The translations under genes and the position numbers were made by a program. Source: an uncultured beta proteobacterium (GTDB taxonomy: Bacteria > Pseudomonadota > Gammaproteobacteria > Burkholderiales > SG8-39). From it: a stretch of 64,000 nt of DNA. Below are positions 2,985 to 63,044 of this stretch, in pieces. The notes below the pieces were generated by a model. That model saw only the letters and a list, made by a program, of their open reading frames with translations, ran no database searches and was not told the origin of the DNA. Every line of letters starts with the position of its first letter. Position 1 is the first letter of the stretch. Location: NCBI GenBank assembly GCA_963832685.1, contig CAWHUZ010000008.1:129638-193637 (forward strand). Direction: 5' to 3'.

Positions 2985-3010
2985 GGACTTTACGTCGATT
3001 GAACCGTCGT

Positions 3011-5853: not shown

Positions 5854-6199
5854 TTGGCAACAGCTATGCCAAATCCAATGCGAAACTGGGCTCTGAAGCG
5901 GCGGCAGTAGTTTTCGAATTCAGCGCTTCACAGCCTCAGAGCCGCACGCGCTTGAGCGTCATAAGTTTGGCCATTCCGACCAATCTATGCTCAATCAAAA
6001 CAGTTCATTAAGAATCATATGCGTCTGGGGCGAACGACGAATTAGCGGTATTCCACAGCTGCCTTGGACGCTGTTGTATATGCGCAACAATTGCCTATCA
6101 GCCGCGCGTCCCTTCAAGCGCGAAGCCGTGGGTTCGCAATGAAGCGTTTACGGGACGCAGGGCCCGCGCGAAACGTCTTCCGCATTACATTCAGAGCGC

Positions 6200-6979: not shown

Positions 6980-7147
6980 GCTGATTCCGCGCGTCCCGCG
7001 GCGTGGGACGTGCCGATTGCGCCACCGGGGCGGCTGCGCAGTGGAGGGCCGGTGGATGCCCGGCCGACTTGCTGCGCGGACGGGATTGCGCCAAGCTTAC
7101 AATCGGTCAATTCGCCACACGGCCGCACGCCCGGAACCCAGCTAGCG

Positions 7148-8896: not shown

Positions 8897-9549
8897 CAGG
8901 CGCAGTCCGCGCGATTGCGGCACTGTTTGTCGCTTCTGCGATCGGCGTGCTCGGATGGTGGCTCTGGCCGCAGATGCCGGGCGCCCAGTCGGCAGTTCGC
9001 GAGGTCGAGAATCTGATCAGGTCCTGGGGCGCATGGGGCGTGCTCGGGTCCGTCGGCTTGATGGTCGCGCACTCGTTCCTGCCCTTTCCCTCGGAAATCA
9101 TCGCGCTGGCGAACGGCATGCTGTACGGCCCGCTGTGGGGATCGGTGATCACTTGGGTCGGTGCAATGCTCGGCGCATCGGCGGCGTTCGGCGTCGTGCG
9201 CTCGCTCGGCCGCCCGGTGCTTCGCGGTCTGCTTTCCGCGCCAATGCATGCCCACCTGTCACGCTGGTCGCGCGAGCGCGGCGGGCTCGCACTGCTGGTT
9301 GCGCGCCTGATTCCGGTGATTGCGTTCAATCTCATCAACTACGCGGCGGCACTTACCGAGATCACTTGGTGGACCTTTCTGTGGGCTACCGGGCTGGGCA
9401 TCCTGCCGTTGACGATTGTTCTCGCGGTGCTGGGCGATAACGTGCTCGATATGCCGGCGTGGGGCTGGGCGTTGCTGCTTGCAGGGGTAGTGGCCGCTTG
9501 GTTGCTGTTGCATCGTAGAGGTCGCGGCGGATCTGCGCCTGTTTATTGA
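8893..9549 (+). CDS. TVP38/TMEM64 (DedA-related) family membrane protein
   Basis: Multi-TM protein with the family-typical FLPFPSEIIALANGMLYG and LIPVIAFNLINYAA segments. The upstream part of the ORF overlaps the kinase gene. I chose the TTG at 8893, which overlaps the kinase TGA and preserves the first TM helix. GTG 8947 and ATG 8974 are alternatives. Confidence 0.65.
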   Translation: MTGAVRAIAALFVASAIGVLGWWLWPQMPGAQSAVREVENLIRSWGAWGVLGSVGLMVAHSFLPFPSEIIALANGMLYGPLWGSVITWVGAMLGASAAFGVVRSLGRPVLRGLLSAPMHAHLSRWSRERGGLALLVARLIPVIAFNLINYAAALTEITWWTFLWATGLGILPLTIVLAVLGDNVLDMPAWGWALLLAGVVAAWLLLHRRGRGGSAPVY

Positions 9550-9559
9550 TTTGTCTCAA
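9546..9559. promoter_or_regulatory. FNR/CRP-family-like box TTGATTTGTCTCAA
   Basis: Matches 9 of 10 positions of TTGAT-N4-ATCAA and is embedded in the larger inverted repeat TATTGA-N6-TCAATA. It lies about 170 nt upstream of the DsrE-like ATG. Confidence 0.3.
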
Positions 9560-9728
9560 TACCGCGCGCAGGAACGTTCCAGCATGATGTAAGGTTCGAA
9601 GCCTGGCCGCCGGGATTCGGTGGCGCGAATGGGGCCATTAACGAACTTGTTGGCGGGGACCGGCAGGTACTTCCATAATCGGTCGGCATCTTGCGGCGGG
9701 CGGGTCGCATCGGCAGTAAGAGGATGAC

Positions 9729-10118
9729 ATGTCGAATCGAATTAGTGTCATGGTGATTTCGGGCAGCCGTGAGAGGCTGCAGATGGCGGCAATGGTCGCG
9801 TCGGTGGGCGCGGTAAGCGGCAACGACGTCCATGTCTTCCTGTCGATGAATGCGCTGTCATATTTCATCAAAGGTGCCGCAAAGCAGCCCGATGCCGAGG
9901 GAGAAATCGGGACGCTGATGGCGGAAAAGAAGGTGCCCCCCTTCCGCGAACTGTTCGAGAACGCGGTCGACCTCGGTGAGGCGAAGATCTATCCTTGCTC
10001 CATGGCGATGGACGTGCTCGCGTTGGAGCAGAAGGATTTGGTGGATTTTCTCGGCGAGCCGATGGGACTTACGAAATTCCTAGACGAAGCCGCTTCAGGC
10101 CAGGTCTGGTCGTTCTGA
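9729..10118 (+). CDS. DsrE/DsrF-like family sulfur-relay protein
   Basis: 129 aa. N-terminal ISVMVISGS fold signature and a single Cys (Cys90) in KIYPCSMAMDV, typical of DsrE-like proteins. SD AAGAGGA upstream. Followed by tusA. Confidence 0.7.
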   Translation: MSNRISVMVISGSRERLQMAAMVASVGAVSGNDVHVFLSMNALSYFIKGAAKQPDAEGEIGTLMAEKKVPPFRELFENAVDLGEAKIYPCSMAMDVLALEQKDLVDFLGEPMGLTKFLDEAASGQVWSF

Positions 10119-10140
10119 CAACAGTGCGAGAGACACGCCG

Positions 10141-10371
10141 ATGATCACGAGAAAGCTGGTGGATGCGCGGGGCAGTTTCTGCCCGGGACCGCTCATGGAG
10201 CTGATCGCAGCAATGAAGGCGGCACAGGTTGGCGAGGAGCTGGAAGTGCTCTCCACCGACAAAGGGTCGGCGCACGACATTCCTGAGTGGATCAACAAGG
10301 TGAAGCACGTGCACGTCGAAACCCGCGAAGAGGAGGGGGTGTGGCACGTGATAGTTCGTAAGGCGAAGTAG
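10141..10371 (+). CDS. tusA: TusA/SirA family sulfurtransferase
   Basis: 76 aa with the canonical D.RG..CPGPLM active-site motif (Cys14). Confidence 0.85.
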   Translation: MITRKLVDARGSFCPGPLMELIAAMKAAQVGEELEVLSTDKGSAHDIPEWINKVKHVHVETREEEGVWHVIVRKAK

Positions 10372-10413
10372 GGAAGTTTCGTCCGATTACACGAGCGACA
10401 TGAGGAGGCGGCG

Positions 10414-11547
10414 ATGAGAATTCTAGTCGTAGGCGGGGGAATGGGCGGCACGATCCTGGCGAACAATCTGGCGAGACGTCTCGTCGGCGAGTTGCGTGCG
10501 GGGAAGGCGCGGATAACGATGCTTTCCGCGTCCGACAAGCACATGTATCAGCCGGGGCTGCTATATCTGGCGATCGGGAGGATGACGCCCGACGAGCTCT
10601 ACCGCGACCAGCGTAGCCTGCTCGAGCCGGGCATCGAATTTCACGCCGATCCGGTCGAAGAATTTCAGTTGGACAAGAACCAGGTCAAGACCAAGAGCGG
10701 CAAGATCCACAGCTACGACCTGATCGTGATCGCAACCGGGTCGCGACCGGTGGCGGAGGAAATCCCGGGCCTGGCCGAGAACGCCGAGCAGTTCTACACC
10801 GAAGAGTCGGCGCTCAAGATGTTCAAGCGCCTGCAGGCGTTCCAGGGCGGCAGGGTGGTGATCACGGTCGGGGTGCCGCACAAGTGCCCGATGGCGCCGC
10901 TCGAGATCACGTTCATGCTGTACGACTACTTCAAGGACCGCGGGATCCTGGACAAGACCAAGCTTCACTACACCTACCCGATCGGGCGCACGCATTCGCT
11001 GGAGAACGTTGCCAAGTGGGCGACCCCCGAGATGGATCGACTCGGCATCACCTACGAGACGCTGTTCAACATGAAGGAGGTCGACGGCGCGAAGAAGGTG
11101 GTGCGCAGCGAGGAAGGTACGGAAGCGCCGTTCGACCTGCTGATCACTATTCCGGCCCACAGGGGCATGGAGGTGATCGAGAAGAACGGTCTTGGACAGC
11201 GTGGCTTCATTCCCACGCACCGGCATCGCTTGAATATGGAGGGGCGCGAAAACGTCTTCGTGGTCGGCGACACCACCAACTTGCCCATAAGCAAGGCGGG
11301 TTCGACGGCTCACTTTGAGGCCGAGGCACTGGCCGAGAACATCGCGGCGATGGTCAAGATGGGTACGCCGGTGCGCGACTACGACGGCAAGGTGTTCTGC
11401 TTCATCGAGGCGGGCAAGGACCGGGCGACATATGCCATGTTCAACTATCAGAATCCGCCCGATCCGAAGGCGCCCACGCGCGCGGTCCACTGGTTCAAGG
11501 TCGCGTACAACAAGCTCTATTGGGCGTCCGCCCGCGGTCTGCTCTGA
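10414..11547 (+). CDS. FAD-dependent pyridine nucleotide-disulfide oxidoreductase, sulfide:quinone oxidoreductase-like
   Basis: N-terminal Rossmann motif ILVVGGGMGG, a second dinucleotide motif VVITVG, HKCPMAPLE (Cys158) and a second Cys (Cys329) at positions comparable to SQR redox cysteines, and VVGD near the C-terminus. SD GAGGAGG. At 377 aa it lacks a long C-terminal amphipathic tail. Confidence 0.7.
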   Translation: MRILVVGGGMGGTILANNLARRLVGELRAGKARITMLSASDKHMYQPGLLYLAIGRMTPDELYRDQRSLLEPGIEFHADPVEEFQLDKNQVKTKSGKIHSYDLIVIATGSRPVAEEIPGLAENAEQFYTEESALKMFKRLQAFQGGRVVITVGVPHKCPMAPLEITFMLYDYFKDRGILDKTKLHYTYPIGRTHSLENVAKWATPEMDRLGITYETLFNMKEVDGAKKVVRSEEGTEAPFDLLITIPAHRGMEVIEKNGLGQRGFIPTHRHRLNMEGRENVFVVGDTTNLPISKAGSTAHFEAEALAENIAAMVKMGTPVRDYDGKVFCFIEAGKDRATYAMFNYQNPPDPKAPTRAVHWFKVAYNKLYWASARGLL

Positions 11548-11557
11548 GGAGACGACG

Positions 11558-12160
11558 ATGAGCACCTCAAACGAGGCGATTTCGACCGAGCTCGAGGTCC
11601 AGCGCGTAGTCGAGGCCGCGCGCGACGCGCTAACCGACGAAATGGTGGGACGCCTGACCGAAGCGGTGGGCGAGGGCCTGAGTCTGCTCGACCAGGTCAA
11701 CCGTTCCGGGCTGGAAAAGGCGCTACCTTCGATTGCCAGGATGGTTCGTGACGGCGACCTGGAGCGGCTGGTTCAACTGGCGCGCGTCTATGGATCCGCA
11801 GAAGATGCGCTGAGCGACGAGATGATCGGGCGCCTGGCGGAAACGATGGCGGAGGGGCTTTCCTTGATGGACCGCCTGAGCCGCGGCGGCGCACTGCATC
11901 TTGTCTTGATGCTCGAGAAGATGCAGGCGTCCGGCGCGCTGGAGCGCATCGCAGTGACGCTGCCGAAGGTCATGGAACGGCTCGAGCACATCGAGCACGT
12001 GCTCGGAAGCCTGGAGTCGGCGGTCGTGGAGACCGAAAAGATGTCTGCGCCGCAAGGCGGGCTTGGCGGACTGTGGCAAATCGCGCGCGACCCGGAGACG
12101 CAGCGCGGCATGCAGTTGCTGCAGAGCTTCAACAGGAATCTGCGAAGCCAGGCAAAGTGA
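11558..12160 (+). CDS. DUF1641 domain-containing protein
   Basis: Internally duplicated helical repeats (DALTDEMVGRLTEAVGEGLSLLD / DALSDEMIGRLAETMAEGLSLMD) characteristic of DUF1641. SD GAGGA. Located immediately after the SQR-like gene, as is commonly seen for this family. Confidence 0.7.
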   Translation: MSTSNEAISTELEVQRVVEAARDALTDEMVGRLTEAVGEGLSLLDQVNRSGLEKALPSIARMVRDGDLERLVQLARVYGSAEDALSDEMIGRLAETMAEGLSLMDRLSRGGALHLVLMLEKMQASGALERIAVTLPKVMERLEHIEHVLGSLESAVVETEKMSAPQGGLGGLWQIARDPETQRGMQLLQSFNRNLRSQAK

Positions 12161-12218
12161 CCGTCTGCTGACCGGAACGGCCGGACCTACCGGCCGCGAT
12201 CGGGCTCCTTGCGCAATC

Positions 12219-12237
12219 TAATGAGAATGGTTATCAT
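12219..12237 (+). promoter_or_regulatory. Fur-box-like operator upstream of the FTR1 permease
   Basis: TAATGAGAATGGTTATCAT matches 14 of 17 aligned positions of the Fur consensus (GA)TAATGATAATCATTATC. It sits in a low-GC spacer 160 nt upstream of the iron permease ATG. Confidence 0.5.
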
Positions 12238-12397
12238 CGGAGAACCTATCTCACATTGAACCGGTTTCCATTCTGTCCCTATTCTCTATCCGTTTGAATA
12301 GAAATGTGAAAAATGACAGAGAGGTCCACTTTGCCTGAGGCTCGCTTGTTCAGCCGAATCTCCGGGGGGTAGGGCGGGACGCCGTAGGAGTTCGAGA

Positions 12398-13243
12398 ATG
12401 CTCGGGTCTGCAGTCGTCGTATTTCGCGAGACGCTGGAAGCTGCGTTGATCGTCGCGATCGTGATGGGCGCGAGTCGTGGCGTGGCGTCGCGCGGGCGCT
12501 GGATCGCGGGCGGGGTTGTGCTCGGAATCGTCGGCGCGCTGGTCGTCGCCGCGTTCGCTGGCGCGATTTCGGACGCCGTGCAGGGGCGCGGCCAGGAATT
12601 GTTCAATGCCGGCGTGCTGCTGGTCGCGGTGGCGATGCTCGCCTGGCACAACGTCTGGATGAGCTCGCATGCGCGCAAGCACGTCGAGGAGATGCGACAT
12701 CTCGGCCACGACGTGAGCGTCGGCGCGAAACCGCTTTCCGCAATGCTTGCCGTCACCGCGCTGGCGGTGCTGCGCGAAGGCGCCGAGACGGTGCTGTTTC
12801 TGTACGGCCTGATGGCGTCCGGCGGAAGCGCCGGACTGGCGCTTGGTGCAATCCTGGGGCTGGTGGGCGGAACGGGGATCGGCGTGCTGCTCTATTTCGG
12901 CCTGCTGCGCGTGCCGCTGCGGCACTTCTTTACTGTCACGGGCGTGATCGTCCTGCTGCTCGCGGCGGGACTCGCGGCGAGCGCTGCCGGCTTCCTGGTC
13001 CAGGCGGGACTGCTGCCTGCCATCGTCAACCAGGTCTGGGACACGTCAGGCATTCTGAGCGTCGGAAGCATCGCGGGCCGCATGTTGCACGTGCTGGTCG
13101 GCTACAACGACCGTCCCACGGGCGTAGAACTGCTGTTCTACATTGTGACGCTGGGGACGATCCTCGCCCTGATGCGCATTGTCGGCGTCCGCACGACTCG
13201 CGCCGCGCGCGCCCAGGCCGCGAAGGAAGGCGCACCCGCGTAG
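12398..13243 (+). CDS. FTR1/EfeU family high-affinity iron permease
   Basis: Seven-TM protein with two REXXE motifs (FRETLEA near the N-terminus and LREGAET in the middle). SD AGGAG. Confidence 0.85.
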
Positions 13244-13271
13244 ACGGCCGATCGCGCGCTACACTGCGCGC

Positions 13272-14966
13272 GTGCCTATCCGCAAGCTTCGGTCGCGCAT
13301 TACGGTCGAGGGCCTCGACCGTGCGCCGCATCGCGCCTTCCTGCGCGCGCTTGGGCTTTCCGACCTCGATCTGGACAAGCCTTTTGTAGGCGTGGCCTCG
13401 ACCGACGGTCGCGTCACGCCCTGCAACGCGCTGTTGGGTGGATTCGCCAGCGCGGCCTGCGCCGCGATACGCGAGGCCGGGGGAATCCCGTTCGATTTCG
13501 CGTCCATATCGGTCGCGGATTCGATGTCCATGGGCCATGGCGGGATGCGCTATTCCCTGGTCTCGCGCGAAATCATCGCCGACGGCGTCGAGGCGGTCGT
13601 CCGCGGGCATGCTTACGATGCATTGGTGACATTTGCAGGTTGCGACAAGACATTGCCGGGGATGATGATGGCGATGGTGCGCCTCAACCTGCCGTCGACA
13701 TTCGTCTACGGCGGTGCGGCCCTGCCCGGGGTCTGGCGCGGGCACGACGTCACCGTGCTCGACACCTACGAAGCGGTTGGTGCGGTGATGGCTGGCGATA
13801 TGGAGCGCGCAGATCTCGATCAGCTAGAGCACGTGTGCCTGCCGACGCTGGGTTCTTGCCCCGGGCAGTTCACCGCCAACACCATGGCGATGGTCTCGGA
13901 GACGCTCGGTCTGGCGCTACCAGGATCCGCCACGATGCCGGCGGTGGCGCCTGAGAGGCAGGGCCAGGCCCGGGAAGCGGGGCGCATCGCGTTGGACCTG
14001 CTGCGCAGCGGCGGACCGCTGCCCCTCGACCTCGTGACGCGCAAGAGCCTGGAGAACGCCTGCGCCGCGGTCGCCGCGACCGGCGGTTCGACCAACGCGG
14101 GGCTGCACATTCCCGCAATCGCGCACGAAGCCGGCATTCGATTCTCGCTCGATGATTTCGCGCGCGTATCCAAGCGCACGCCGCTGATTGCCGACATGAA
14201 GCCGGGCGGGCGCTTTCTTGCCAAGGATCTGCACGCGGTGGGCGGAGTCTATGCGGTGCTGAAGGAGCTGTTGCGGCGCGGCGTGCTGCACGGCGACTGT
14301 CTTACGATCTTCGGCACGACGCTCGAGCAGGAGCTCAAAGGTCACCCCGGCGCCGACGGTGAGGTGGTGCGTCGCAAACCGCTTGGCGGGAGCGGCGGCA
14401 TCGTGGTCCTGAAAGGCAACCTGTGTCCCGACGGGGCGCTGATCAAGATAGCCGGACTGAGCTCGCTCACGTTCGAGGGCGTTGCGCGCGTGTTCGATTC
14501 CGAGGAGGCGTGCGCGGACGTAGTGCGCAGGCGCGGCTACAAGGCCGGTGACGTGCTCGTTATTCGCTACGAAGGCCCAAGGGGCGGGCCGGGAATGCGC
14601 GAGATGCTCGGCGTCACGGCGTTGATCTACGGTCAGGGGATGGGCGAGAAGGTGGCGCTCGTTACCGACGGGAGATTTTCCGGTGCGACGCGCGGGATGA
14701 TGATCGGCTACCTGTCGCCGGAGGCCGCCGTGGGCGGCCCGCTCGCGCTCGTCAATGACGGCGATCGCGTAAAGATCGACGCGGGAAAGGGCGAGCTCTC
14801 GTTGCTCGTGTCGGCGGCTGAGCTGGTGCGCCGACGTCGATCGTGGAAGCCGCCGCATCGTGCGCCGCCCGCGGGTGCGCTGGAGAAGTATGCGGCGCAG
14901 GTGGGATCGGCATTCCGGGGCGCGGTCACCCACAGCGGGGGCGCCAGCAAGAGACGGAGGAAGTAG
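13272..14966 (+). CDS. ilvD: dihydroxy-acid dehydratase (IlvD/Edd family)
   Basis: Family motifs LRS....[15 protein letters not shown]...[16 protein letters not shown] and TDGRFSG. Start set at GTG 13272 because the longer ORF overlaps the FTR1 gene. Confidence 0.8.
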
Positions 14967-14976
14967 ACGGCCGACG

Positions 14977-16566
14977 TCAAGCCGGCAGCATGGACTCGGC
15001 CAGCGCGCGAAGTCTGCCCTTCTGGATTTTAGTGGCGTTCGCACCCGGCGTGACCGGGAATTCTTCCACCGCGAAGGCGCGCACTGGAACCTTGTAGGCT
15101 GCGAGCCTGCCCGCCACGAACGCCAGCAGCGCCGCTTCATCCAGCGCAGCCTGCGGCTCGAGCACGACGAAAGCGACCGGCTGCAGGCGGTCGCGGCGCG
15201 GCACGCCGACCACCTGGCAGGCGGAAACACCCGGGAACGCTTGAACCACTACCTCGATTTCCGGCGGGCTCACTAGAAATCCGCCCAGACGCAGGGCGTC
15301 GCCGATGCGGGCAAGAAAGGCGAAGCGTCCGTCGGCATGCGTGCAGCCAAGGTCGCCGGAGCGGTAGTACCCGTCGTCGGTGAGCGCACGTGCGCTTGCC
15401 TCCGGGTCGCCGAAATAGCCGACCATGCGGCTGTCCGGCGCGTAGAACTCGAGCTCACCCGCGGCGCCATGCGCAAGAATTTCGCCGCTCTCCGGGTCGC
15501 GCGCCCGCACTTTGGCGGCCGCGCTTACCGGCCTGCCGCCGGCTGGCGCGCGCTCCTCCAGTGGCGCGTTCTCGTCCTGGCGCGCGAACAGCGCCTGGAT
15601 CTCGCTCATGCCGTATAGACCAACTAGCCTGAGGCCGCGCGCTTGCGCCCGAGCGGCGATGTCGCCGTGCGCGGGGCTGAACGCCGCATAGCCGAAGAAT
15701 CGAACGCCCGGAAACGGTTGTCGCGCCGCACTCTGCTCTAGAAGCTGGGCGACGGCCTCGTCGGTGCCGTTCGCGTGCGTCACGCGATGTATCGCGATGT
15801 CATTCGCCGCCTGCGCCGCGTTCCACGCCGGGCGCATGACGAGGGGCCGCCCGGCAGCGACGGCGGCCATCGCGCTGCAAAAGCCGTACACCCCGCAGAG
15901 CGGGGGAGCGAGCAGCATTACCGAATCTTCGTCCAACCCGAATACGTGCGCGACGTTGGTCGCGTGCGCGATCACTCCGTGCTGGTCATGCAGGACGAAT
16001 TTCGGGGTGCTCGTCGTGCCCGACGTGGTGAAAATGACACAACCCGCCTCGGGCGTTGCCGCGCTTTCAACCAAGGCGGCGCCCGACGCAAGTGTCTCGT
16101 AACCGACGGCAGATTTGCCGACAACGGCTCGGGGCGGTCGAGCGCCATCTTCCGAATAGACGACAATGGACTCGAGACGCTCCAGCGCGGCCGGGTCGCA
16201 TTGCGCGAGAATCGACGCGAAATCAATACCTTTGAACCCCGGCCAAAGCACGAGCACGCGCGCGCCGGAGCGCTCCACGATGTCGGCGACTTCATGGCTC
16301 CGGAAGCGCGTATTGACCGAGACCGCGATCGCGCCGAGCTGCGCGCAGGCAAAAAATGTCGCAAGCCATGCGGGGACGTTGGGCAGCCACAGCGCGACCC
16401 GGTCGCCGGGTCCGACGCCGAGCCGCTCGAGACCGTGCGCGACCCGGCGGCTCTCTTCCGCCAGCTCGCGAAAGCCCACCGGCCGCCCGCGATCGATCAA
16501 CATCGGACCGGCAAGCGCCGCGCGTCGGGCCAGAAGCTGCTCAAGCGTATGTGGAGGGAAATTCAT
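14977..16566 (-). CDS. AMP-dependent synthetase/ligase (acyl-CoA synthetase family)
   Basis: AMP-binding motif FTTSGTTSTPKFV, YGMSE, the YRSGDLG hinge and a C-terminal KIQK. Confidence 0.8.
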   Translation of the reverse strand: MNFPPHTLEQLLARRAALAGPMLIDRGRPVGFRELAEESRRVAHGLERLGVGPGDRVALWLPNVPAWLATFFACAQLGAIAVSVNTRFRSHEVADIVERSGARVLVLWPGFKGIDFASILAQCDPAALERLESIVVYSEDGARPPRAVVGKSAVGYETLASGAALVESAATPEAGCVIFTTSGTTSTPKFVLHDQHGVIAHATNVAHVFGLDEDSVMLLAPPLCGVYGFCSAMAAVAAGRPLVMRPAWNAAQAANDIAIHRVTHANGTDEAVAQLLEQSAARQPFPGVRFFGYAAFSPAHGDIAARAQARGLRLVGLYGMSEIQALFARQDENAPLEERAPAGGRPVSAAAKVRARDPESGEILAHGAAGELEFYAPDSRMVGYFGDPEASARALTDDGYYRSGDLGCTHADGRFAFLARIGDALRLGGFLVSPPEIEVVVQAFPGVSACQVVGVPRRDRLQPVAFVVLEPQAALDEAALLAFVAGRLAAYKVPVRAFAVEEFPVTPGANATKIQKGRLRALAESMLPA

Positions 16567-48007: not shown

Positions 48008-48061
48008 CCGGGGCGGAGCGCACACCGTCTTTACGGCGGGTTTCGTTCGCGGTACCATGGC

Positions 48062-48120
48062 ACCTGCGCCGATTTGAAACGACAGCTTGCGGGCGCGTTA
48101 AAAATGCTGCTAAAGCGTGC
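48062..48120 (+). promoter_or_regulatory. candidate SAM-II-like riboswitch aptamer in the metZ leader
   Basis: The GCGCC(48066-70)/GGCGC(48092-96) hairpin has a loop containing GAUUUGAAACGACAGCUUGC. The A-rich 3' tail AAAAAUGCUGCUAAAGCG (48100-17) can pair with that loop (GCUU/AAGC, CAGC/GCUG), giving an H-type pseudoknot. It lies upstream of a methionine-biosynthesis gene and just before a terminator. The resemblance to the SAM-II consensus is from memory only. Confidence 0.35.
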
Positions 48121-48124
48121 CGCC

Positions 48125-48153
48125 AAACCCGGTTCGCGCAGCCGGGTTTTTTT
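48125..48153 (+). terminator. Rho-independent terminator/attenuator between purF and metZ
   Basis: AAACCCGG-ttcgcgcag-CCGGGTTT stem-loop followed by a T-run (7 T ending at 48153). It lies 28 nt upstream of the metZ ATG. Confidence 0.7.
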
Positions 48154-55773: not shown

Positions 55774-57798
55774 TTACAGATCGAACGACGAGGGCGGCAG
55801 CCCTGCTTTGTGGCGGCGCCACATTTGAACGAACCCGGCTTCGAGCTCGCGAACGCGGCCGGCCGTGTCAAACAGGGGCGCGCTCGACCGGTTTGCGCTC
55901 AGCCTGGCCTTCAGTGCGCCGAGTGCAGCGCGGTTGGCGCCGAGGTCCGTGGCTGCTCGTACGAAGGCCTCGGAATCGGCGGCAACGAGATCCGGTAGTC
56001 CCGCGGCGCGCAACAGGCTCTCGCCGGCGCGTGAGGCGAAGGTCTCGCCCCTGAGGGTCAATACCGGCAGGCCGGCACCGAGGGCGTCGCATGCGGTGGA
56101 TATGGCGTCGTGATGGACGGCATCGAGCAGCAGGTCGCCGAGCCGCTGACGGGCGAGGTAGCGTTCGCGCGGATCGAGGGGCGCGCAAATGAGGCGCCGG
56201 GCGTCGACGCCGCGCGCAGCCGCCTCGCGTCGCAGATTTTCGATACCCGCGGGCGGCAAGGCGTTCAGCCACAGAACGGATCCCGGAACGCGCGTGAGCG
56301 CGCGCATCCACAGGTCGAACGCGTCGGGGGTGATCTTCTCGGGCTTGTGGCTGGCGCAAAACACGACGGCGTTCACTGGCAGGCCGTAGTCGGCTCTGGC
56401 GATGGAGCGCGGCGGTGCCGACTCCCGAAAGTCGTAGAGAAAGTAGGTATTGGGCAGACGCACGAGCGCTTCCGACCAGCGCGTTTGAGATTCCGGGGGG
56501 GCGACGACGCTGTCGACGATCGCGTAGTCCACCCGCTCCGACCCGAGCGTCGCGGGGAACACCAAGTAGAGCACCTGCAGGACGGCCGGGCGGTACGCGA
56601 CAATCTCGAATCGGCCGCCCGCGGCGTGGCCTGCCGCATCGACGAGAATGTCGACCTCGTCGCGCCGGATTGCTTCGGCGGCGGCGCGGTCGCCGAATCC
56701 GGCGAGGTCGCGGAACCGGTCCGCGGCCTGGCGCAGCCTGGTGCGGACCGGACTTCCATCGTCCGCAGTCAGCGAATAGGCGAAAACCTCGAAGCGCGCG
56801 CGGTCGATCAGCTCGAACAGGGGCAGCAACAGGTAGGCATGCAAGTGCGCGCGAAAGTCCGGCGACACGATCCCGATGCGGATGCGGTCGTGCGTGCGTT
56901 CCGCACACTGCGGCATGGGAACGACCTTACGTTCGATGCGGGCAGCGATCGCGCGAGCGAGGTGGAACCGCTCGCCCTCGTCGAGCGGCAGATGCAGCGC
57001 GGTGAACGCAAGCGCACGGTCGAGCTGCAACGCCGGGTCGCGGATCGCCCGCCGGAACTCGGCCAGGTAGTCCTCCCATCCGCTCCAGTCGCACGCGCCC
57101 TGCGCGACGTAACGCCGCCAGAGAAAGATGTTCTCGGGCGCCAGCATCGCTTCCGGCTCGGAATGCGGCGCCACAGACTGAATGAAGCGCATGACCGCGG
57201 GGCGGTCGGCGGAGAGCGCCGCGGCGATCGCCGCGCGCGACTCCTCGAAACGCCGCAGCGAGGCGAGCGCGATCCCGCGTTTGAGCAACGCGAGTGAATC
57301 GCGCGGCACCCGCGCAATGATCCAATCGAACTCAGTAAGTGCTTCCTCGTACCTGCCGAGCGCGAGCAGGACCTCGGCGAGGTCGCCGCGCGCGCGCGGC
57401 GAATCCGGATGCAGGCCGGCATAGCCGCGGTGGCTGCGTTCCGCCTCGCCCAGCCGTCCCATCCGGGCCAGAAGCAGACCGCGATTGTGCAGGGCGTCTT
57501 CGTGCGCGGGAGCCCGCTGCAGCGCGGTTTCGTAGCGCGCGAGCGCGTCGTCCGGCCGACCGAGGTCCTCGAGCGCGACGGCGCTGGCGTAGATTGCGTT
57601 GGCATTGGGCGAAAGCGTGAGCGAGCGCTCGAACGCCTCGAGCGCGCCCGCCGCGTCGCTCAACTGATGCCGGCAGGCGCCGAGCAGAAACCAGCCTCTC
57701 GCATCAGACGCGTCGGCAGCGACTTGCGCTTCGAGAAGCGGCAACGCCGCGCGCGGGTCGCCCGCGCGCAGCCGCTCGAGTGCCGCGTCCAGCGACAA
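55774..57798 (-). CDS. TPR repeat protein fused to GT41 (O-GlcNAc transferase / SPINDLY-like) glycosyltransferase domain
   Basis: The N-terminal ~230 aa are TPRs. The C-terminal part has RIGIVSPDFRAHLHAYLLLPLFE..DR..FEVFAYS, typical of bacterial OGT-like GT41 proteins. The TTG start lies 6 nt after the FecR-domain gene's stop. No signal peptide. Confidence 0.7.
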   Translation of the reverse strand: MSLDAALERLRAGDPRAALPLLEAQVAADASDARGWFLLGACRHQLSDAAGALEAFERSLTLSPNANAIYASAVALEDLGRPDDALARYETALQRAPAHEDALHNRGLLLARMGRLGEAERSHRGYAGLHPDSPRARGDLAEVLLALGRYEEALTEFDWIIARVPRDSLALLKRGIALASLRRFEESRAAIAAALSADRPAVMRFIQSVAPHSEPEAMLAPENIFLWRRYVAQGACDWSGWEDYLAEFRRAIRDPALQLDRALAFTALHLPLDEGERFHLARAIAARIERKVVPMPQCAERTHDRIRIGIVSPDFRAHLHAYLLLPLFELIDRARFEVFAYSLTADDGSPVRTRLRQAADRFRDLAGFGDRAAAEAIRRDEVDILVDAAGHAAGGRFEIVAYRPAVLQVLYLVFPATLGSERVDYAIVDSVVAPPESQTRWSEALVRLPNTYFLYDFRESAPPRSIARADYGLPVNAVVFCASHKPEKITPDAFDLWMRALTRVPGSVLWLNALPPAGIENLRREAAARGVDARRLICAPLDPRERYLARQRLGDLLLDAVHHDAISTACDALGAGLPVLTLRGETFASRAGESLLRAAGLPDLVAADSEAFVRAATDLGANRAALGALKARLSANRSSAPLFDTAGRVRELEAGFVQMWRRHKAGLPPSSFDL

Positions 57799-57804
57799 CC
57801 GCGG

Positions 57805-59232
57805 TTATGGCACCGGCACGCCGGTGTTCTTGAACGCCGCAGCGCCGACGATGTCTGCGGAGTAGCTGTCGTTGATGTGGTATGCCACGCCGGCGCGCGC
57901 GGCGTTTGCGCCCGAGAAGAATCCCTGGACGTCTGAAAAGCAGCCCGACCCGGCGCACGCATTTCCGCCGGCTCCGGTGACGCTCAAGCTCGAGGACGAG
58001 AACAGCGCTCCGGAATAGTTGTCCGCCATTCCGTTCAACAGGTATTTGTTGCCGTCCGGCATCGCGACGCTGAATGCCATTGTGACGGTGGGATTACTCG
58101 GGCCGAACAGGACTTCGAGTGAACCGGCGAAGCTGCCCGGCGCCGAGCGTCCATCGACATAGGTCGGGCTGGTGGCACCGAGCAGGGTAAATATCGCGCT
58201 TCCGGTGGTCGGCATCACCGGGGTTGGCATGCCGATCACGTAATGCAGGCCCCGTTTCGCATCGTAGGTCACGAGCGAGGAGCAATCGCATCCCTGATTC
58301 GTGACATCGCCGATCCAGCGTCCCCAGGCGAGAATGCCGTCAGTACCGAAATCGACGTTCGATCCGCCAGGTTGGAGCGTGAATTGTCCGTCCGATGCCG
58401 ACACGTCGGTCAGCTGGCCGGACGCGTCGAACACGGCATCGACGGGTGTGGAAGCGAACACGTACGGTGGTCCGTAACCCGAGCTGTCGAATACGACCGC
58501 TGTCGCGTACCCGCTGCCGCTCTTCAGCGGAACGATCGGAACGATCGGAACGATCGTCGGCACGATGGGATCGCCGCTGTCGGTGCGCTCGTCGCCGTAG
58601 ATGAAGGTGGGGGGCGGCGCGGGCGGGACTTGGGGGATGCCGTTGGTTTCCTGCGGCGGCTGGCTCGGATCGGCGGGGGCAAGGCCGCTGGAGCCCGCCG
58701 GGACGTCGATCGATCCCGCGGCGTTGCTGAGCGACCAGATGCCGCTGCTGCCGCGGATGAGCGTCGACCCGTCAGGAAGTACCGCGATCAGGCCGCCGGT
58801 GCCGCGGATGCCGACGGTCGCGGTCGGGGTCGTGATCTGGAAGGTGTTGCGGTTGACGCGGCCGATGAGGCCGGTCACCGCGCGCATGGCGCCCTTGAGG
58901 AGCGAGAAGAAGCCGCGCTCGCTGCCGTCGGGTTTGCCGTCGTACTTGTACTCGTTGACTCCGAACACGGTGTTCGGCTGCAGCGAAACGTAGGCGCCAT
59001 CGGGGAACCGGATCTGTGCCCGGCCGTCATTGGTGCGGATGGTGTCGCCGCTTTCGAGCTCGGCGCCCTTGAGCAGAGGTCGCTGCTGGCCGTTTGGCCG
59101 GGTCGCGACGACGCCGCCTGTGCTGAAGTCGATGCGGCCGGCACTGCCCTCGGCGTTGCCGGCGAATGCCGCGGAAATGAGTGCGAGCGTCAGCGCGCTC
59201 CTGTTCATCCGAAACGGTGCTGTCCTGTTCAT
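57805..59232 (-). CDS. secreted FecR-domain protein with TbpB-like C-terminal beta-barrel (candidate Slam cargo)
   Basis: Sec signal without a lipobox Cys (ALTLALISAAFAGNA|EG). FecR domain (GRIDFSTGGVVATRP......L..G..L..GD.I.T..G.A.I.F.DG). Pro-rich/IVP-repeat linker. The C-terminal ~190 aa show the pattern of the 8-stranded barrel of TbpB/fHbp/HpuA-type proteins (A.FTL.GAT......G.F.GSL.V.F.......M.F.V......Y.L.G........F......V.GFF.G..A...G..Y........IVGAAAFK). SD GGGGGA lies 5 nt upstream of ATG 59232. Confidence 0.55.
   Translation of the reverse strand: MNRTAPFRMNRSALTLALISAAFAGNAEGSAGRIDFSTGGVVATRPNGQQRPLLKGAELESGDTIRTNDGRAQIRFPDGAYVSLQPNTVFGVNEYKYDGKPDGSERGFFSLLKGAMRAVTGLIGRVNRNTFQITTPTATVGIRGTGGLIAVLPDGSTLIRGSSGIWSLSNAAGSIDVPAGSSGLAPADPSQPPQETNGIPQVPPAPPPTFIYGDERTDSGDPIVPTIVPIVPIVPLKSGSGYATAVVFDSSGYGPPYVFASTPVDAVFDASGQLTDVSASDGQFTLQPGGSNVDFGTDGILAWGRWIGDVTNQGCDCSSLVTYDAKRGLHYVIGMPTPVMPTTGSAIFTLLGATSPTYVDGRSAPGSFAGSLEVLFGPSNPTVTMAFSVAMPDGNKYLLNGMADNYSGALFSSSSLSVTGAGGNACAGSGCFSDVQGFFSGANAARAGVAYHINDSYSADIVGAAAFKNTGVPVP
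58529..58555. repeat. perfect 9-bp tandem repeat (GGAACGATC x3) inside the FecR-domain gene
   Basis: Three exact head-to-tail copies at 58529-37, 58538-46 and 58547-55, plus a degenerate fourth. In frame they encode (IVP)n in the inter-domain linker. Confidence 0.9.
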
Positions 59233-59328
59233 TTCGTCCCCCAAATTCCGAGCCGGCCCTCGGGACGTTGAGGCGCCCCCAGGGGCCGCGGTACCAGCAA
59301 ATATGTCACGTTACTGGCCCCGAGACTG

Positions 59329-60657
59329 TCAAAAATCGAAACGGATCGAGACCGTGCCCACCGTGCGGCGGAAGCGGTAAAGGTCGATATTCGACTCGTT
59401 GTCCGTATGCGTGGCTTGCAAGATGAGCGTCGTTCCCGCGCGCATCAGATAGCTGGCCCCGAGGCGCACGTCGGTCTGCTTGTCTTTGCGCGTGACGAGG
59501 AAGATCGGCTCGGGACCGCCGTAACGGCGCTCCTCGTAGTTGACCCCCCCGAACACGGTCCAGCCTTGCGCCGGTTTGATCTGCCCGCCAATGCGCAGGC
59601 CGGCCGGCTTGTGCCCCAGGTGCGGCACTCCATCGGCGAGCTCGGACTCCTCGCCGCCGTAGACGCTGAGAAAGAGCACTGGCGAGAGCCCGCCCGAGAA
59701 CGCCTGCGCCCAGGCAGCGCCGACGATGCCGCGGTTGGCGTCGCGGATCTGCTGAGTGGGATAGCGCAGCTGGGCGTACTGCACATAGCCGGTAAGCTGG
59801 CGCCGCTCGTCGAGGTTGTGCTGCCATTGCGCGATCAGGCCGCGCGAATCGCGGTAGCGGGAATTGTCCAGTTCGAAACTCTGCATCTGAGCCGCGAGGG
59901 TCAGCGCGTCGGTGTCCACTGCCCAGCGCGCGCCGAGGTTGCCTTCGATCGTGTCGGTATCGAACTGGTCCTCGTTGCGGTTGAATTTTCCGTTGCCCGC
60001 GACGCTTCCGACCACGGCCCAGCGATCGCCCAGCTTGCGGGTGAAGTTGATTCCGCCCGCCACGCTGGCGAAGCTGTCGCTCTTGCTCGTCGCCGCAGAG
60101 TTCAAGGTCGCAATCAGCCCGCCGAAAGCGGGCAGGGCGATCTGCGAATTGGCGGTCGCGCTGTTCACGTTGCTGTCCGAGCCCAACCCCAGCTCGACGT
60201 AACCCTGAACCTGGGTCGTTTCCGCTGCCGTGATCGCCGACAGGTAGCGGTCGATCGTGGCCCTTGCCTCGGCCGGAATCGGCTGGCGCTTGACGTTCTC
60301 GAACTCGCGCCGCGCGGTGTCCTTCTCGCCGACGAACAAGTAGGCGCGCGCGATCTCCGCGCGCGCAAGCGCATTATCGGGCTGCACCGCGAGCACCCTC
60401 TCGAGCGCGAACACCGCCCGCTCTCCGTGGCCGGAATCGAGCGCCGCGATCCCCAGCAGGTAGTCGAATTCTGGATCGCCGGCGCGCTGGGCCTCGAGCG
60501 GCAGCAGCAGCTCGTAGGCCTGCGACGGCTGCTTTTGGGCGAGCAATTGCTTGGCTCGATCGAGCGCCTGGTCGGCGAGCGCAGTCAGGCTCAGGGCGGC
60601 CATCGCCAGCCCGAGGATTAAAGAAATCCGAGCGGCGGCGCGCGGTATCCCTATCAT
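59329..60657 (-). CDS. outer-membrane TPR + beta-barrel protein, Slam (surface lipoprotein assembly modulator / DUF560)-like
   Basis: Signal peptide, N-terminal TPRs (about residues 30-130), then GYVELGLGSDSNVNSA and about 290 aa of amphipathic beta strands ending NESNIDLYRFRRTVGTVSIRFDF (terminal Phe). Purine-rich SD upstream of ATG 60657. Confidence 0.55.
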   Translation of the reverse strand: MIGIPRAAARISLILGLAMAALSLTALADQALDRAKQLLAQKQPSQAYELLLPLEAQRAGDPEFDYLLGIAALDSGHGERAVFALERVLAVQPDNALARAEIARAYLFVGEKDTARREFENVKRQPIPAEARATIDRYLSAITAAETTQVQGYVELGLGSDSNVNSATANSQIALPAFGGLIATLNSAATSKSDSFASVAGGINFTRKLGDRWAVVGSVAGNGKFNRNEDQFDTDTIEGNLGARWAVDTDALTLAAQMQSFELDNSRYRDSRGLIAQWQHNLDERRQLTGYVQYAQLRYPTQQIRDANRGIVGAAWAQAFSGGLSPVLFLSVYGGEESELADGVPHLGHKPAGLRIGGQIKPAQGWTVFGGVNYEERRYGGPEPIFLVTRKDKQTDVRLGASYLMRAGTTLILQATHTDNESNIDLYRFRRTVGTVSIRFDF

Positions 60658-60721
60658 CTTCCCACCCCCCTTTGCGAGACGGGAACGAGTCTAACACCAG
60701 AGGAAATACGGGGCGGCCGAG

Positions 60722-61915
60722 TCAGCCCGCGAGCTCGGCGATGCGCGCCGCGATGCGCGCACTGACGGCCTCCGGGTCGTCGCCGGCGTAGCGGTCCGCA
60801 AATGCCTGCGCACGGCGCCGCGGGGCCGGGTCCTTTATCGCTGCGTCCAGCGCGGCGCGCAGGCGCACGGAATCCGGCGGGCCGTCGCCGGGCGTGACCG
60901 CGACGCCGAGGTCGAACGCGTTGCGCGCCGTCACCGCCTGCTCGGCGTGGGCGGGCAGCAGGACCATGGGTTTGCCCGCGCGCAACACCATGGCGACAGA
61001 GCCGTGGCCCGCCGCGAGCAGCGCCGCGTCGCATTGCGCCGCCGCGGTCGCGATGTCGAGCGGCGCTGCGGCGAAGGAAAAGCGCGCCGCGGGGCGGCGG
61101 TCGCGCTCGAGTTGTGAAATACCGGGCGCGTAGACAAGCGCGCGCAGCCCGAGCGCGTCGATCGCGTCGAGGGCGGCGGGCAGCCATGCGTGCATCCCAT
61201 CGAGGTAAACCAGTACGCGCGCCGCGTCGCCGGCCGGCCAGTCGGCGCGCGAATCCCGCCGCAGGGAATCGGCGAGCACGCCCCAGTAGCGCGCCTCGGG
61301 GCGTGCGCGGTAGTGGTCAAGCTCCGGCACGGTGGTCAGGAACTGCTCGTTCACCCGGAACAGGTCTGCAAGGCGTTGCAACGGAGCGTCCCCCAGCGCG
61401 CCGAGCACCGCATTCGCGTTCGCCAGCACGCGTGCTTCGGCGTCGGCCAGACGCGCCTCGAGGCCGGCCGCGCGAGGGAAGAAACTGGGCATGGGCGAGA
61501 GCGCCGGCGGGATGAAGAATCCGGTCCCGATGGTCGCAACACGCACGTCCCTGCCGCGCGCCGCTAGCATCGCGCCGGGCGCGTAATCCGCCACCAAGAC
61601 GCGCGGCGTCAACTGCTCGATCAGGCTGCGCCATCCGCGCACGATGCCCTCGAGATATCCGGGCTCCAGGTAGCCGTTGCGCAGCAGCAGATCGGGGTAG
61701 CTGACCGGCGGTTCCGGCAGGCCGCGCGTCTGGTGCAGCCAGGTCGGTGCCTGCCAGAGGGTGAACTCGGCGGGAGAAAAGGCCTCGTGGACACGCGCCA
61801 GGTCGCGCACCGCCCACGCCACGTCGATGCCCTGCGCCGCGAGCTTGCGCGCGACCGGGAGAAAGCGCGCGAGATGCCCGAGTCCGCCGCCGTATTCCCA
61901 GCAAAAGAGAATCAT
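60722..61915 (-). CDS. GT1-family (MGT/UDP-glycosyltransferase-like, GT-B fold) glycosyltransferase
   Basis: N-terminus EYGGGLGHLARFLPVARKL and C-terminal nucleotide-sugar motif GHGSVAMVLRAGKPMVLLPAHAEQ, typical of GT1/GT28-C enzymes. No signal peptide. The ATG is 19 nt after the dnaJ stop. Confidence 0.65.
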   Translation of the reverse strand: MILFCWEYGGGLGHLARFLPVARKLAAQGIDVAWAVRDLARVHEAFSPAEFTLWQAPTWLHQTRGLPEPPVSYPDLLLRNGYLEPGYLEGIVRGWRSLIEQLTPRVLVADYAPGAMLAARGRDVRVATIGTGFFIPPALSPMPSFFPRAAGLEARLADAEARVLANANAVLGALGDAPLQRLADLFRVNEQFLTTVPELDHYRARPEARYWGVLADSLRRDSRADWPAGDAARVLVYLDGMHAWLPAALDAIDALGLRALVYAPGISQLERDRRPAARFSFAAAPLDIATAAAQCDAALLAAGHGSVAMVLRAGKPMVLLPAHAEQAVTARNAFDLGVAVTPGDGPPDSVRLRAALDAAIKDPAPRRRAQAFADRYAGDDPEAVSARIAARIAELAG

Positions 61916-61934
61916 CTGGCAGCGGTCGGCATTT

Positions 61935-63044
61935 TTAGCCTTCGAAGAACTCCTTCACCTTCTCCAGCCAGGACTTGCTGCGGGGATTGTGGCGCGCCGA
62001 ATCTTCCAGGCTGATCGACTCGAACTCGCGCAAGAGCTCTTTTTGACGCTCGGTGAGCTTGACCGGCGTCTCCACCACGACGTGGCAGAACAGGTCTCCG
62101 GCCGTGCGGCTGCGCACGCCGACGATGCCTTTGCCGCGCAGGCGAAACACCTTGCCGCTCTGCGTTTCCGAGGGGACCTTAATCCGGGCGGACCCGTCGA
62201 GCGTGGGAATCTCGATCTCGCCCCCGAGTGCCGCGGCGGCGAACGAGACCGGCATCTCGCAGTGCAGGTCGTCGTGATCGCGCTGGAACACCGGGTGCTG
62301 CTTGATCTGGACCTGGACGTAAAGGTCGCCCGCCGGACCGCCGTTCACGCCGGGCTCGCCTTCGCCCGACAGGCGCACGCGGTCGCCTTCGTCGACGCCT
62401 GCCGGGATCTTCACCGACAGGGTTTTCTGCAGCTTGACGCGGCCCGAACCGCCGCAGGTGCCGCAGGGATGCGGAATGATCTTGCCGCTGCCGTGGCAGC
62501 GCGGGCAGGTCTGCGCGATCGAGAACGGGCCCTGCGAGATGCGAACCTGGCCCGCGCCGTGGCAGGTGGGGCAGGTCTGGGCCTGGGTGCCCTTGCGCGC
62601 GCCGCTGCCGCCGCAGGTTTCGCACTCGGCAACGCCGGGAATGCGGATCTTGGTCTCGAACCCGTGCGCCGCCTGCTCGAGCGTGATCTGCAGGTTGTAG
62701 CGCAGGTCCGCGCCGCGGTACACGGTGGAGCGCCCGCCGCGCTGGCCGCCGAAGATCTCGCCGAAGATATCGCTGAAGATGTCGCCGAATCCGGCTGGGC
62801 CGCCCGCGCCGCCCTGCGGATGAACGCCCGCGTGCCCGAACTGGTCGTAGGCGGCGCGCTTCTCGGCGCTGGTCAGGATCTCGTAGGCCTCGTTGGCTTC
62901 CTTGAAGTGTTCCTCGGCCTTCGGATTGTCCGGATTTCTGTCCGGGTGCCACTTCATGGCGAGCCTGCGGTAGGCCTTCTTGATCTCTTCTTCGCTTGCG
63001 TCGCGGTTGACGCCGAGGACTTCGTAGTAGTCGCGTTTCGCCAT
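61935..63044 (-). CDS. dnaJ: molecular chaperone DnaJ
   Basis: J domain with HPD (KWHPDRN), a G/F region and four CxxCxGxG zinc-finger repeats. Confidence 0.95.

Follow-up and report, generated by a model that had tools for sequence, protein, structure and literature searches.

Directly 3′ of the dnaK-dnaJ genes of an uncultured beta proteobacterium, four minus-strand open reading frames (ORFs) encode, in this order, a GT1-like glycosyltransferase, an outer-membrane protein (OMP) with TPRs and a beta-barrel, a secreted protein with a FecR domain, and a TPR-GT41 protein. They lie at positions 55774 to 61915 of a 64,000-nucleotide stretch of contig CAWHUZ010000008.1 (GenBank assembly GCA_963832685.1, positions 129,638 to 193,637), which is referred to here as the window and whose numbering is used throughout. 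The two central genes, encoding the OMP and what will be called the cargo, probably form a two-gene secretion pair of the Slam or type XI secretion system (T11SS) type in an environmental Burkholderiales bacterium from soil, accompanied by an accessory protein glycosyltransferase. The basis of this reading is homology, predicted fold, and gene linkage, from which we infer translocation, final location, ligand, and glycosylation. The genes of the locus are as follows:

61935-63044, dnaJ, 19 nucleotides upstream of the GT1-like gene

60722-61915, minus strand, GT1-like gene (397 amino acids), a cytoplasmic GT-B glycosyltransferase recognized by weak matches and inserted between dnaJ and the OMP gene

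59329-60657, minus strand, OMP gene (442 amino acids)

57805-59244, minus strand, ORF of the FecR-domain cargo gene, with its start at ATG 59232 (475 amino acids from this ATG)

55774-57798, minus strand, OGT-like TPR-GT41 gene (674 amino acids), with TPRs at approximately residues 1-215 and then the GT41 catalytic domain

The spacers within this group are short: 64 nucleotides between the GT1-like and OMP genes, 96 between the OMP and cargo genes, and 6 between the cargo and GT41 genes. A preliminary description of this DNA had reported four same-strand genes with these spacers, and the coordinates agree with it when the 96 nucleotides are counted to the cargo ATG at 59232. GC content is 65-72% along the locus, with no break.

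The OMP gene encodes a protein with three parts:

60574-60657, minus strand, signal peptide (residues 1-28, ending in LTALA before DQ), from sequence reading and an N-terminal helix in the AlphaFold2 model

60217-60573, minus strand, periplasmic TPR domain (residues 29-147) of about three TPRs, with TPR_19 at 29.5 bits against a cut-off of 25 and AlphaFold2 helices at residues 44-146

59329-60216, minus strand, 14-stranded beta-barrel of the DUF560/SlipAM type (residues 148-442 and the stop codon), ending in SIRFDF

The Pfam match to SlipAM/DUF560 (PF04575; E = 9e-8, 32.4 bits against a cut-off of 22) covers residues 156-437 of the OMP and positions 7-283 of the 288 in the profile, and SlipAM is the sole barrel family in Pfam to score above its cut-off. 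The same family is found in the precomputed annotation of nearly all of 120 listed OMP homologues, one of which bears the NCBI name “surface lipoprotein assembly modifier.” In an AlphaFold2 model of the protein (predicted local distance difference test [pLDDT] 84), a signal helix leads into about three TPRs, and DSSP assigns precisely 14 strands. In Foldseek searches of the PDB with this model, the best matches were PelBC (9h80, 9e-13), BcsC, and the 14-stranded FadL and OmpG, with target-normalized TM-scores of 0.62-0.69 to OmpG. The TPR domain is the best-conserved part of the OMP homologues, with a mean pairwise identity of 72.5% as compared to 58% for the barrel. The Slam/DUF560 layout that had been proposed for this protein is thus borne out by a PF04575 score above the gathering threshold together with 14 predicted strands and periplasmic TPRs, and both of the sequence strings quoted in that proposal, GYVELGLGSDSNVN in the barrel and ...NIDLYRFRRTVGTVSIRFDF at the C-terminus, are present. 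Judging by its family and predicted fold, we take the OMP to be an outer-membrane translocon of the Slam/T11SS type.

The cargo, whose residues are numbered here along the ORF 57805-59244, can be divided into five parts:

59146-59232, minus strand, start and signal peptidase I (SPase-I) signal peptide without a lipobox, placed by the Shine-Dalgarno sequence, the alignment of homologues, and 87 homologues lacking a lipobox at the cleavage site

58633-59145, minus strand, FecR-type beta domain (residues 34-204), from Pfam FecR PF04773 and the Foldseek match 4m0h

58519-58632, minus strand, disordered Pro-rich linker (residues 205-242, 26% Pro)

58210-58518, minus strand, handle (pedestal) beta-sheet (residues 243-345), with eight AlphaFold2 strands at residues 243-338

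57805-58209, minus strand, C-terminal 8-stranded barrel (residues 346-473, AlphaFold2 strands 349-473, last strand ADIVGAAAFK), short tail, and stop codon

The ATG at 59232 is preceded by the Shine-Dalgarno sequence GGGGGA, and homologues align from the Met that it encodes. In all 87 of the N-termini that were inspected, the FecR domain comes directly after an SPase-I-type signal peptide, and a lipobox is present at the cleavage site in none of them; the window cargo likewise has an SPase-I-type signal peptide without a lipobox. Three earlier statements about this protein therefore stand: its N-terminal half is a FecR domain, supported by both PF04773 and the fold match to 4m0h; the lipobox Cys is missing, in the window protein as well as in the 87 homologues; and the C-terminus reads IVGAAAFK. 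Without a lipid anchor, the cargo would belong with hemophilin among the soluble cargos. Two cysteines of a barrel loop are conserved in the cargo alignment, C435 without exception and C430 almost so, and they fit an extracytoplasmic protein. The signal region itself has a mean pairwise identity of 65%, above that of the mature handle and barrel, and its n-region, PFR(L/M)N(R/K)S (59190-59232, minus strand; PFRMNRS in the window cargo), is unusually conserved.

The FecR assignment rests on a Pfam match to PF04773 (E = 2e-11, 44.6 bits against a cut-off of 24) and a Foldseek match of the N-terminal half to the FecR-type anti-sigma domain 4m0h (root-mean-square deviation of 3.0 Å over 138 columns). 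NCBIfam adds weak matches of the N-terminal part to Leptospira Lsa33 (3.7e-5) and LipL45 (5.4e-5). As a separate observation, residues 34-99 (approximately 58948-59145, minus strand) weakly match the LapA retention module (NF033682, 1.6e-4) and region I of the Marinomonas protein MpIBP (PDB 5ix9, E = 0.07). No cytoplasmic anti-sigma domain and no transmembrane helix was found in the cargo, where the FecR domain starts right after the cleavable signal peptide, so this domain would act as a binding module and not as a sigma regulator.

The presence of a FecR domain, detected by both Pfam and fold, nevertheless calls to mind cell-surface signaling, in which the FecR protein would act as a sensor in the periplasm and link the OMP with an extracytoplasmic function (ECF) sigma factor or some other regulator, on the model of FecA-FecR-FecI. 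T11SS papers have always read FecR in this way, as a neighboring regulator. We consider such a role very unlikely for the protein described here. Besides the position of the domain right after a cleavable signal peptide and the missing anti-sigma domain and transmembrane helix, neither an ECF sigma factor nor a TonB-dependent transducer was found beside the pair in the window or in annotated relatives, and half of the protein is a module of the Slam-substrate type that is repeated up to several times in relatives.

It is this C-terminal half that ties the cargo to the secretion pair reading. The AlphaFold2 model of the cargo, built on an alignment of 63 sequences, places the beta-rich FecR domain at residues 34-200 and has a mean pLDDT of 86, with values mostly above 90 for residues 243-473 and below 50 in the linker at residues 209-220 and 226-235. 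In Foldseek searches of the PDB, the beta-half matched Vibrio HphA (8gm3, 5.3e-5), the C-lobe of TbpB (5kkx, 6.1e-5), and full-length TbpBs with a probability of 1.00, and further matches of the same probability, at E-values up to 2e-3, were to Acinetobacter baumannii hemophilin (7re4), Haemophilus haemolyticus hemophilin (6om5), and many fHbp entries. The top matches of the C-terminal half are almost exclusively known Slam substrates. Alignments to the two-subdomain HphA and TbpB C-lobe span 245-273 columns, a number to be read with the query coordinates being absent from the Foldseek output. The preliminary description had proposed a recognition barrel of about 190 amino acids from about residue 290 with a fold like that of the TbpB C-lobe or hemophilin. 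A small 8-stranded barrel with a Slam-substrate fold is indeed predicted, and HphA, the TbpB C-lobe, and hemophilin top the Foldseek list, but the extent has to be redrawn, with a handle at residues 243-345 and then the barrel at residues 346-473. The handle and 8-stranded barrel together would correspond to the module by which TbpB, fHbp, and hemophilin are directed to Slam.

To examine how this gene pair is distributed, 82 related loci were fetched (labeled with L-numbers below), and their ORFs were called and searched with the window proteins. Linkage of the OMP was counted in the loci whose upstream DNA extends to 1.4 kb or more (n = 73) and linkage of the GT41 gene in those with enough downstream DNA (n = 56). 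The cargo family comprises 1215 proteins at E <1e-3 among the candidates scored, and 430 cargo loci were confirmed among species-representative genomes. The carriers are almost all metagenome bins, from Burkholderiales, other Betaproteobacteria, Gallionella, Rhodocyclaceae, Variovorax, Rhodoferax, and Moraxellaceae/Agitococcus. Bins also account for the matches in Variovorax, Rhodoferax, and Brachymonas, and the one record without a MAG label is that of Moraxellaceae bacterium AER2_44_116 (L076). A homologous OMP gene lies immediately upstream of the cargo gene on the same strand in every one of the 73 informative loci. The co-localization of OMP and cargo orthologues in other genomes, on which the original proposal depended, thus holds across several genomic contexts. 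The pair is found after dnaJ (L001, L002, and L085), between an APH kinase gene and a His_Phos gene in an APH/SelR context (L083 and L084), beside wax-ester synthase and patatin genes (L051), and in further contexts in Moraxellaceae and Variovorax. When the loci were clustered by single linkage on the flanking ORFs that they share, these contexts were over-merged, and the result was used only qualitatively.

Tandem arrays of the form OMPa-cargo_a-OMPb-cargo_b occur in Moraxellaceae/Agitococcus (L071 at 6484-15117, L076 at 2427-11225, and L077 at 2538-11189, as well as L074 and L070). Their cargos are 830 and approximately 1050 amino acids in length, each with one FecR domain and two to three handle-barrel lobes. 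Orthologues in these arrays share 58-74% (OMPa) and 53-80% (OMPb) identity as compared to 45-60% between OMP paralogues, and the same is true of the cargos, with 53-64% (cargo a) and 53-71% (cargo b) between orthologues and 44-51% between paralogues. As orthologues resemble each other more than paralogues do, in the OMPs and in the cargos alike, the pair was duplicated as a unit, with each OMP keeping its own cargo. These sequence relationships indicate that the tandem pairs are cognate, the pattern expected of transporter-substrate pairs.

Domain hidden Markov models derived from the alignment reveal a single N-terminal FecR domain and then two or three handle-barrel lobes in the longer cargos of 780-1050 amino acids. 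The lobe itself belongs to a large family: an exhaustive search of 1.84 billion representatives, in which the C-terminal half alone served as the query, recovered 764 clusters at 50% identity (E <= 1e-3). This family includes proteins of 1000-2462 amino acids with three to six matched stretches, one of them with long Pro-Thr repeats (among P0241-P0389, e.g., P0243, P0251, and P0280), and, as for the cargo, no Pfam model was found for the lobe in the proteins from this search. Lobe proteins without FecR were considered as independent architectures and set aside, as most of them are N-terminally truncated metagenomic fragments, the multi-lobe giants excepted. More than one cargo gene can also accompany the pair. 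In L002 (8001-10811), a single OMP gene is followed by a tandem of two paralogous FecR-handle-barrel cargo genes and then by a TPR-GT41 gene, and L009 and L014 contain two cargo copies each. With these relatives, the architecture FecR-linker-handle-barrel is supported as a soluble, conserved, and previously undescribed class of predicted cargo that is widespread in environmental bacteria.

The glycosyltransferases that flank the pair differ in how closely they follow it. The GT41 protein matches Glyco_transf_41 (PF13844, E = 9.4e-77) along with multiple TPR families in Pfam, and its closest sequence matches are to human OGT (3e-85), Xanthomonas XcOGT (1e-64), and SPINDLY, with the N-glycosyltransferase (NGT) matching only at 1.5e-4 in NCBIfam. 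Its N-terminus reads as lacking a hydrophobic signal. Of the 56 loci, 26 have a TPR-GT41 gene directly after the cargo gene and 32 have one within 8 kb. The linkage is found in 16 of 21 loci in the dnaJ context, and elsewhere the gene is adjacent in 8 and nearby in 12 of 27 loci. In L083 and L084, the OMP, cargo, and GT41 genes form a three-gene cassette in an unrelated context. Only one NxS/T sequon recurs in the cargo family; it lies in the n-region of the signal peptide (44 of 63 sequences), and its occurrence is unrelated to the presence of GT41.

The GT1-like protein has a sub-threshold Pfam match to EryCIII-like_C (1.2e-6, 29 bits against 31.7), an NCBIfam match to the MGT subfamily (2.5e-7), and weak matches in the PDB to GtfA, GtfB, and OleD. 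Homologues are present in only 3 of the 82 loci (L003, L072, and L057), and from this distribution the gene is a lineage-specific insertion that is probably accessory. An association of the pair with two glycosyltransferases, as first described, therefore holds for the recurrent TPR-GT41 (adjacent in 26 of 56 loci) and does not extend to GT1, which is lineage-specific (3 of 82 loci). In L051 (9376-15305) and L057 (9468-13962), the pair is followed by one or two enzymes resembling PaaK/F390 synthetase and then by a GT4 or a homologue of the GT1-like gene of the window, and L051 has a TPR-GT41 gene as well; this gene set hints at a linked small-molecule or modification pathway. Two genes of 460 amino acids after the L051 cargo had been considered as extra cargos and were rejected, as we read their translations as adenylate-forming enzymes of the PaaK/F390-synthetase type. 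No Pfam family was found in these two, and the corresponding L057 gene has an AMP-binding match.

An alternative that takes the glycosyltransferases as its starting point is polysaccharide export, with the OMP as a PelB/BcsC/PgaA-like porin, both glycosyltransferases building the polymer, and the FecR protein as a periplasmic accessory or regulator. In a published sequence similarity network, PgaA sequences were among those retrieved by DUF560 models (PMC8406197). PelBC (9h80, 9e-13) is the best Foldseek match of the OMP and BcsC also ranks high, weak NCBIfam matches of the OMP are to EpsL, PEP-CTERM-associated OMPs, PgaA, and BcsC, with the scores for PgaA and BcsC far under their cut-offs, and in addition to the glycosyltransferases that flank the pair in the window, further ones (GT4 and GT1-like) recur in L051 and L057. 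The barrels of PelB, BcsC, and PgaA have 16 strands, whereas that of the OMP is predicted to have 14, and among barrel families SlipAM alone scores above its cut-off. No processive synthase, inner-membrane transporter, or Wzx, Wzy, or Wza was found at the locus, and no synthase or transporter in relatives. GT41 is a protein-modifying family, as the OGT match (3e-85) attests; the OMP-cargo pair is invariant (73 of 73 loci), whereas loci can do without the glycosyltransferases, 24 of 56 having none that was found in the flank; and the cargo has a Slam-substrate fold. Taken together, these points make polysaccharide export highly improbable, and a protein secretion pair is the reading that is pursued here.

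Several observations weigh against a Slam/T11SS pair with an accessory glycosyltransferase. The SlipAM score of the OMP is modest, the Slam-specific TPR model PF24575 gave no match to it in Pfam, and a search of the PDB for a Slam structure returned none, the top structural match being the polysaccharide exporter PelB. On the side of the cargo, Foldseek E-values are moderate (approximately 1e-4), and target-normalized TM-scores are 0.4-0.5. The TbpB_B_D (PF01298) match that had been suggested for the C-terminal half did not materialize: neither this nor any other Pfam family matched it even at E <= 1 in the window cargo and nine diverse relatives, and TbpB, HphA, and fHbp were not found among PDB sequences in single-sequence and family-profile searches. 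With no match at the sequence level, the kinship of this half with known cargo is drawn from its predicted fold. No gene for a TonB-dependent receptor or for iron, heme, or metal uptake was found within approximately 8 kb of the pair in the window and the annotated loci L001, L002, and L083-L086, whereas classical Slam loci typically, though not obligatorily, have such a link. The accessory role of GT41 faces objections of its own. The gene is absent from the flank in 24 of 56 loci, including the close relative L085, NxS/T sequons are not enriched in the cargo (4.2 observed vs 3.6 expected), and loci that have GT41 are no different from those that lack it in the Ser/Thr content of the linker (Mann-Whitney p = 0.39). 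As the linkage is partial and missing in close relatives, GT41 is a frequent but dispensable partner. Lastly, the FecR domain, which is the presumed passenger, has a mean pairwise identity of 71% as compared to 48% for the handle and 53% for the barrel. A FecR domain that is better conserved than the targeting module is the opposite of what would be expected from a simple effector/targeting split.

This last pattern invites a different topology, in which the FecR domain folds and stays in the periplasm, perhaps docked on the OMP TPRs, while the linker threads the barrel and only the lobes are exposed. We regard such a pore-tethered display as unlikely, though less so than the two alternatives weighed above. 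One to several lobes would be displayed on the surface in this way without a lipid anchor, the lobes being the effectors and the OGT-like enzyme modifying the pre-protein before export, an arrangement to which we assign a low probability. With equal reserve, the FecR domain could be seen as an anchor that needs no lipid, or as a retention module, comparable to the N-terminal plug of LapA and MpIBP. The FecR domain (71%) and the OMP TPRs (72.5%) are the most conserved parts of the two proteins, and the lobes (48-53%) and OMP barrel (58%) vary more. Lobe number ranges from one to three in related loci, with three to six matched stretches in the wider family, always with a single FecR domain after the signal peptide. 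A disordered Pro-rich linker of 38 residues could span the barrel, the weak matches to the LapA retention module (NF033682, 1.6e-4) and MpIBP region I (5ix9, E = 0.07) point in the same direction, and the domain in FecR-type regulators is generally known to work in the periplasm against the periplasmic domain of an OMP, as FecR does with FecA. The retention-module matches are, however, below any threshold and absent from the Foldseek top 50, all characterized T11SS cargos are exported completely, and the conservation could be explained otherwise, for example by a conserved ligand. If true, pore tethering would add a third T11SS cargo topology beside lipid-anchored and released cargos, as well as a new role for the FecR fold.

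Under the secretion pair reading with complete export, which we favor, the pre-protein would be exported by Sec and cleaved by signal peptidase I, after which the unfolded cargo would be held in the periplasm by a Skp-type holdase, by analogy with TbpB. Slam has been described as a translocon for unfolded cargo with a C-terminal specificity motif, and TbpB-Slam1 translocation was reconstituted with Skp as holdase (PMC9090332). The cognate OMP would recognize the cargo through its C-terminal barrel and pass it across the outer membrane, where it might be displayed, released, or loosely associated, as hemophilin is. In the absence of a lipid anchor, release or loose association would be expected, and hemophilin provides a precedent for a soluble, non-lipidated Slam cargo. 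The FecR domain could serve as an extracytoplasmic binding module, with the Leptospira surface adhesin Lsa33 as a precedent. The weakest step of this scheme is glycosylation. GT41 is translationally close to the cargo (6 nucleotides) and recurrently linked to it, and its most likely substrate is the cargo or another factor in that pathway, which it would modify in the cytoplasm ahead of export, by analogy with HMW1C and HMW1.

The remaining features of the window bear on expression and genomic setting. The neighbors of the cargo gene are dnaJ, the GT1-like gene, the OMP and GT41 genes, a periplasmic binding protein gene, and cysS. In one lineage, represented by the window, L001, and L085, the module lies immediately 3′ of a hrcA-grpE-dnaK-dnaJ heat-shock cluster. 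The gap between dnaJ and the GT1-like gene in the window is 19 nucleotides (61916-61934), the dnaJ-to-OMP gap in relatives is approximately 60 nucleotides, and the scan of the window gap gave no terminator-like site on its coding strand. Co-transcription of the module with dnaKJ is possible. A scan of the operon found no promoter-like sites, and shuffled sequence contained terminator-like sites just as often, both scans being uninformative in DNA of 65-70% GC. A SAM_alpha (SAM-II) riboswitch (RF00521) was detected at 48056-48134 on the plus strand, at 37.1 bits against a gathering score of 36.

A FecR-domain Slam cargo had been flagged as undescribed, which agrees with the searchable literature, in which no single paper was found that treats DUF560 and FecR together. 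A survey of T11SS cargo lists approximately ten architectures, none with FecR, which appears only in a supplementary co-occurrence table beside Sigma-70 families (PMC12282271), and two hemophilin papers treat a neighboring FecR as an iron regulator. For family members like the cargo described here, reading a nearby “FecR” as an iron regulator in surveys of T11SS neighborhoods would be wrong, and a FecR-domain architecture can be added to the approximately ten that are known. Every T11SS/Slam cargo that has been verified by experiment comes from OMP cluster 1, which is mostly animal-associated, and the nine other T11SS OMP clusters, mostly from soil and water bacteria, have no characterized member (PMC8406197). 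In the marine cluster 3, the sole environmental cluster analyzed so far, the C-terminal barrel is rare (PMC12282271). The present locus offers a concrete, testable OMP-cargo pair for environmental Betaproteobacteria, and suggests that the handle-barrel targeting module persists in this group in a form invisible to Pfam models. No paper linking T11SS with GT41 or OGT was found in the searchable literature either; glycosylation of T11SS cargo has been raised there only as a possibility, and the recurrent OGT-like GT41 provides a route to testing it.

Comparison with characterized systems places the pair closest to the hemophilin-type T11SS (HphA-Slam of A. baumannii, Hpl, and HrpC). In both, a DUF560 OMP that combines periplasmic TPRs with a 14-stranded barrel is encoded beside the cargo, and the cargo is Sec-dependent, lacks a lipobox, and has a handle and a C-terminal 8-stranded barrel, HphA being the top Foldseek match. 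They differ in the passenger, which is a FecR domain on a Pro-rich linker here and a heme-binding clamp there. The present pair also lacks a nearby TonB-dependent receptor or heme oxygenase, its lobe has no Pfam match, its host belongs to environmental Burkholderiales, and an OGT-like GT41 is often linked. Neisseria TbpB, LbpB, and fHbp with Slam1 and Slam2 share with it the handle-barrel lobes, multi-lobe relatives (compare the bilobed TbpB), and cognate pairs after duplication, but the cargo described here has no lipid anchor, no host-iron context, no similarity at the sequence level, and a different N-terminal domain.

The FecR domain can be compared with two further groups of proteins. Like anti-sigma regulators of the FecR/PupR type, the cargo has a PF04773 beta domain, by sequence and by fold (4m0h). 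Unlike them, it has no anti-sigma domain, transmembrane helix, ECF sigma partner, or TonB-dependent transducer, and its FecR domain is fused to a secretion-targeting module. Closer in architecture are the Leptospira proteins Lsa33 and LipL45 and the Burkholderia LysM-FecR proteins paired with CHASE2 kinases, in which FecR also comes directly after the signal peptide, outside of the FecI/FecR pathway, and which illustrate the use of FecR domains as extracytoplasmic binding modules (Lsa33, PMC3444417; LysM-FecR, PMC5192318). These proteins are lipoproteins or periplasmic, and have neither a handle-barrel module nor a Slam partner.

For the gene set as a whole, including the glycosyltransferase, the nearest parallel is HMW1ABC, with which it shares an operon containing an outer-membrane transporter, a secreted substrate, and a cytoplasmic protein glycosyltransferase of the GT41 family. 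HMW1A-HMW1B-HMW1C is a two-partner secretion system with a cytoplasmic GT41 N-glycosyltransferase, and flagellin glycosyltransferases that contain TPRs are also known. In the locus described here, the transporter is of the DUF560 and not the Omp85/TpsB type, the enzyme is of the OGT type with TPRs (NGT match 1.5e-4), cargo sequons are not enriched, and glycosylation is putative.

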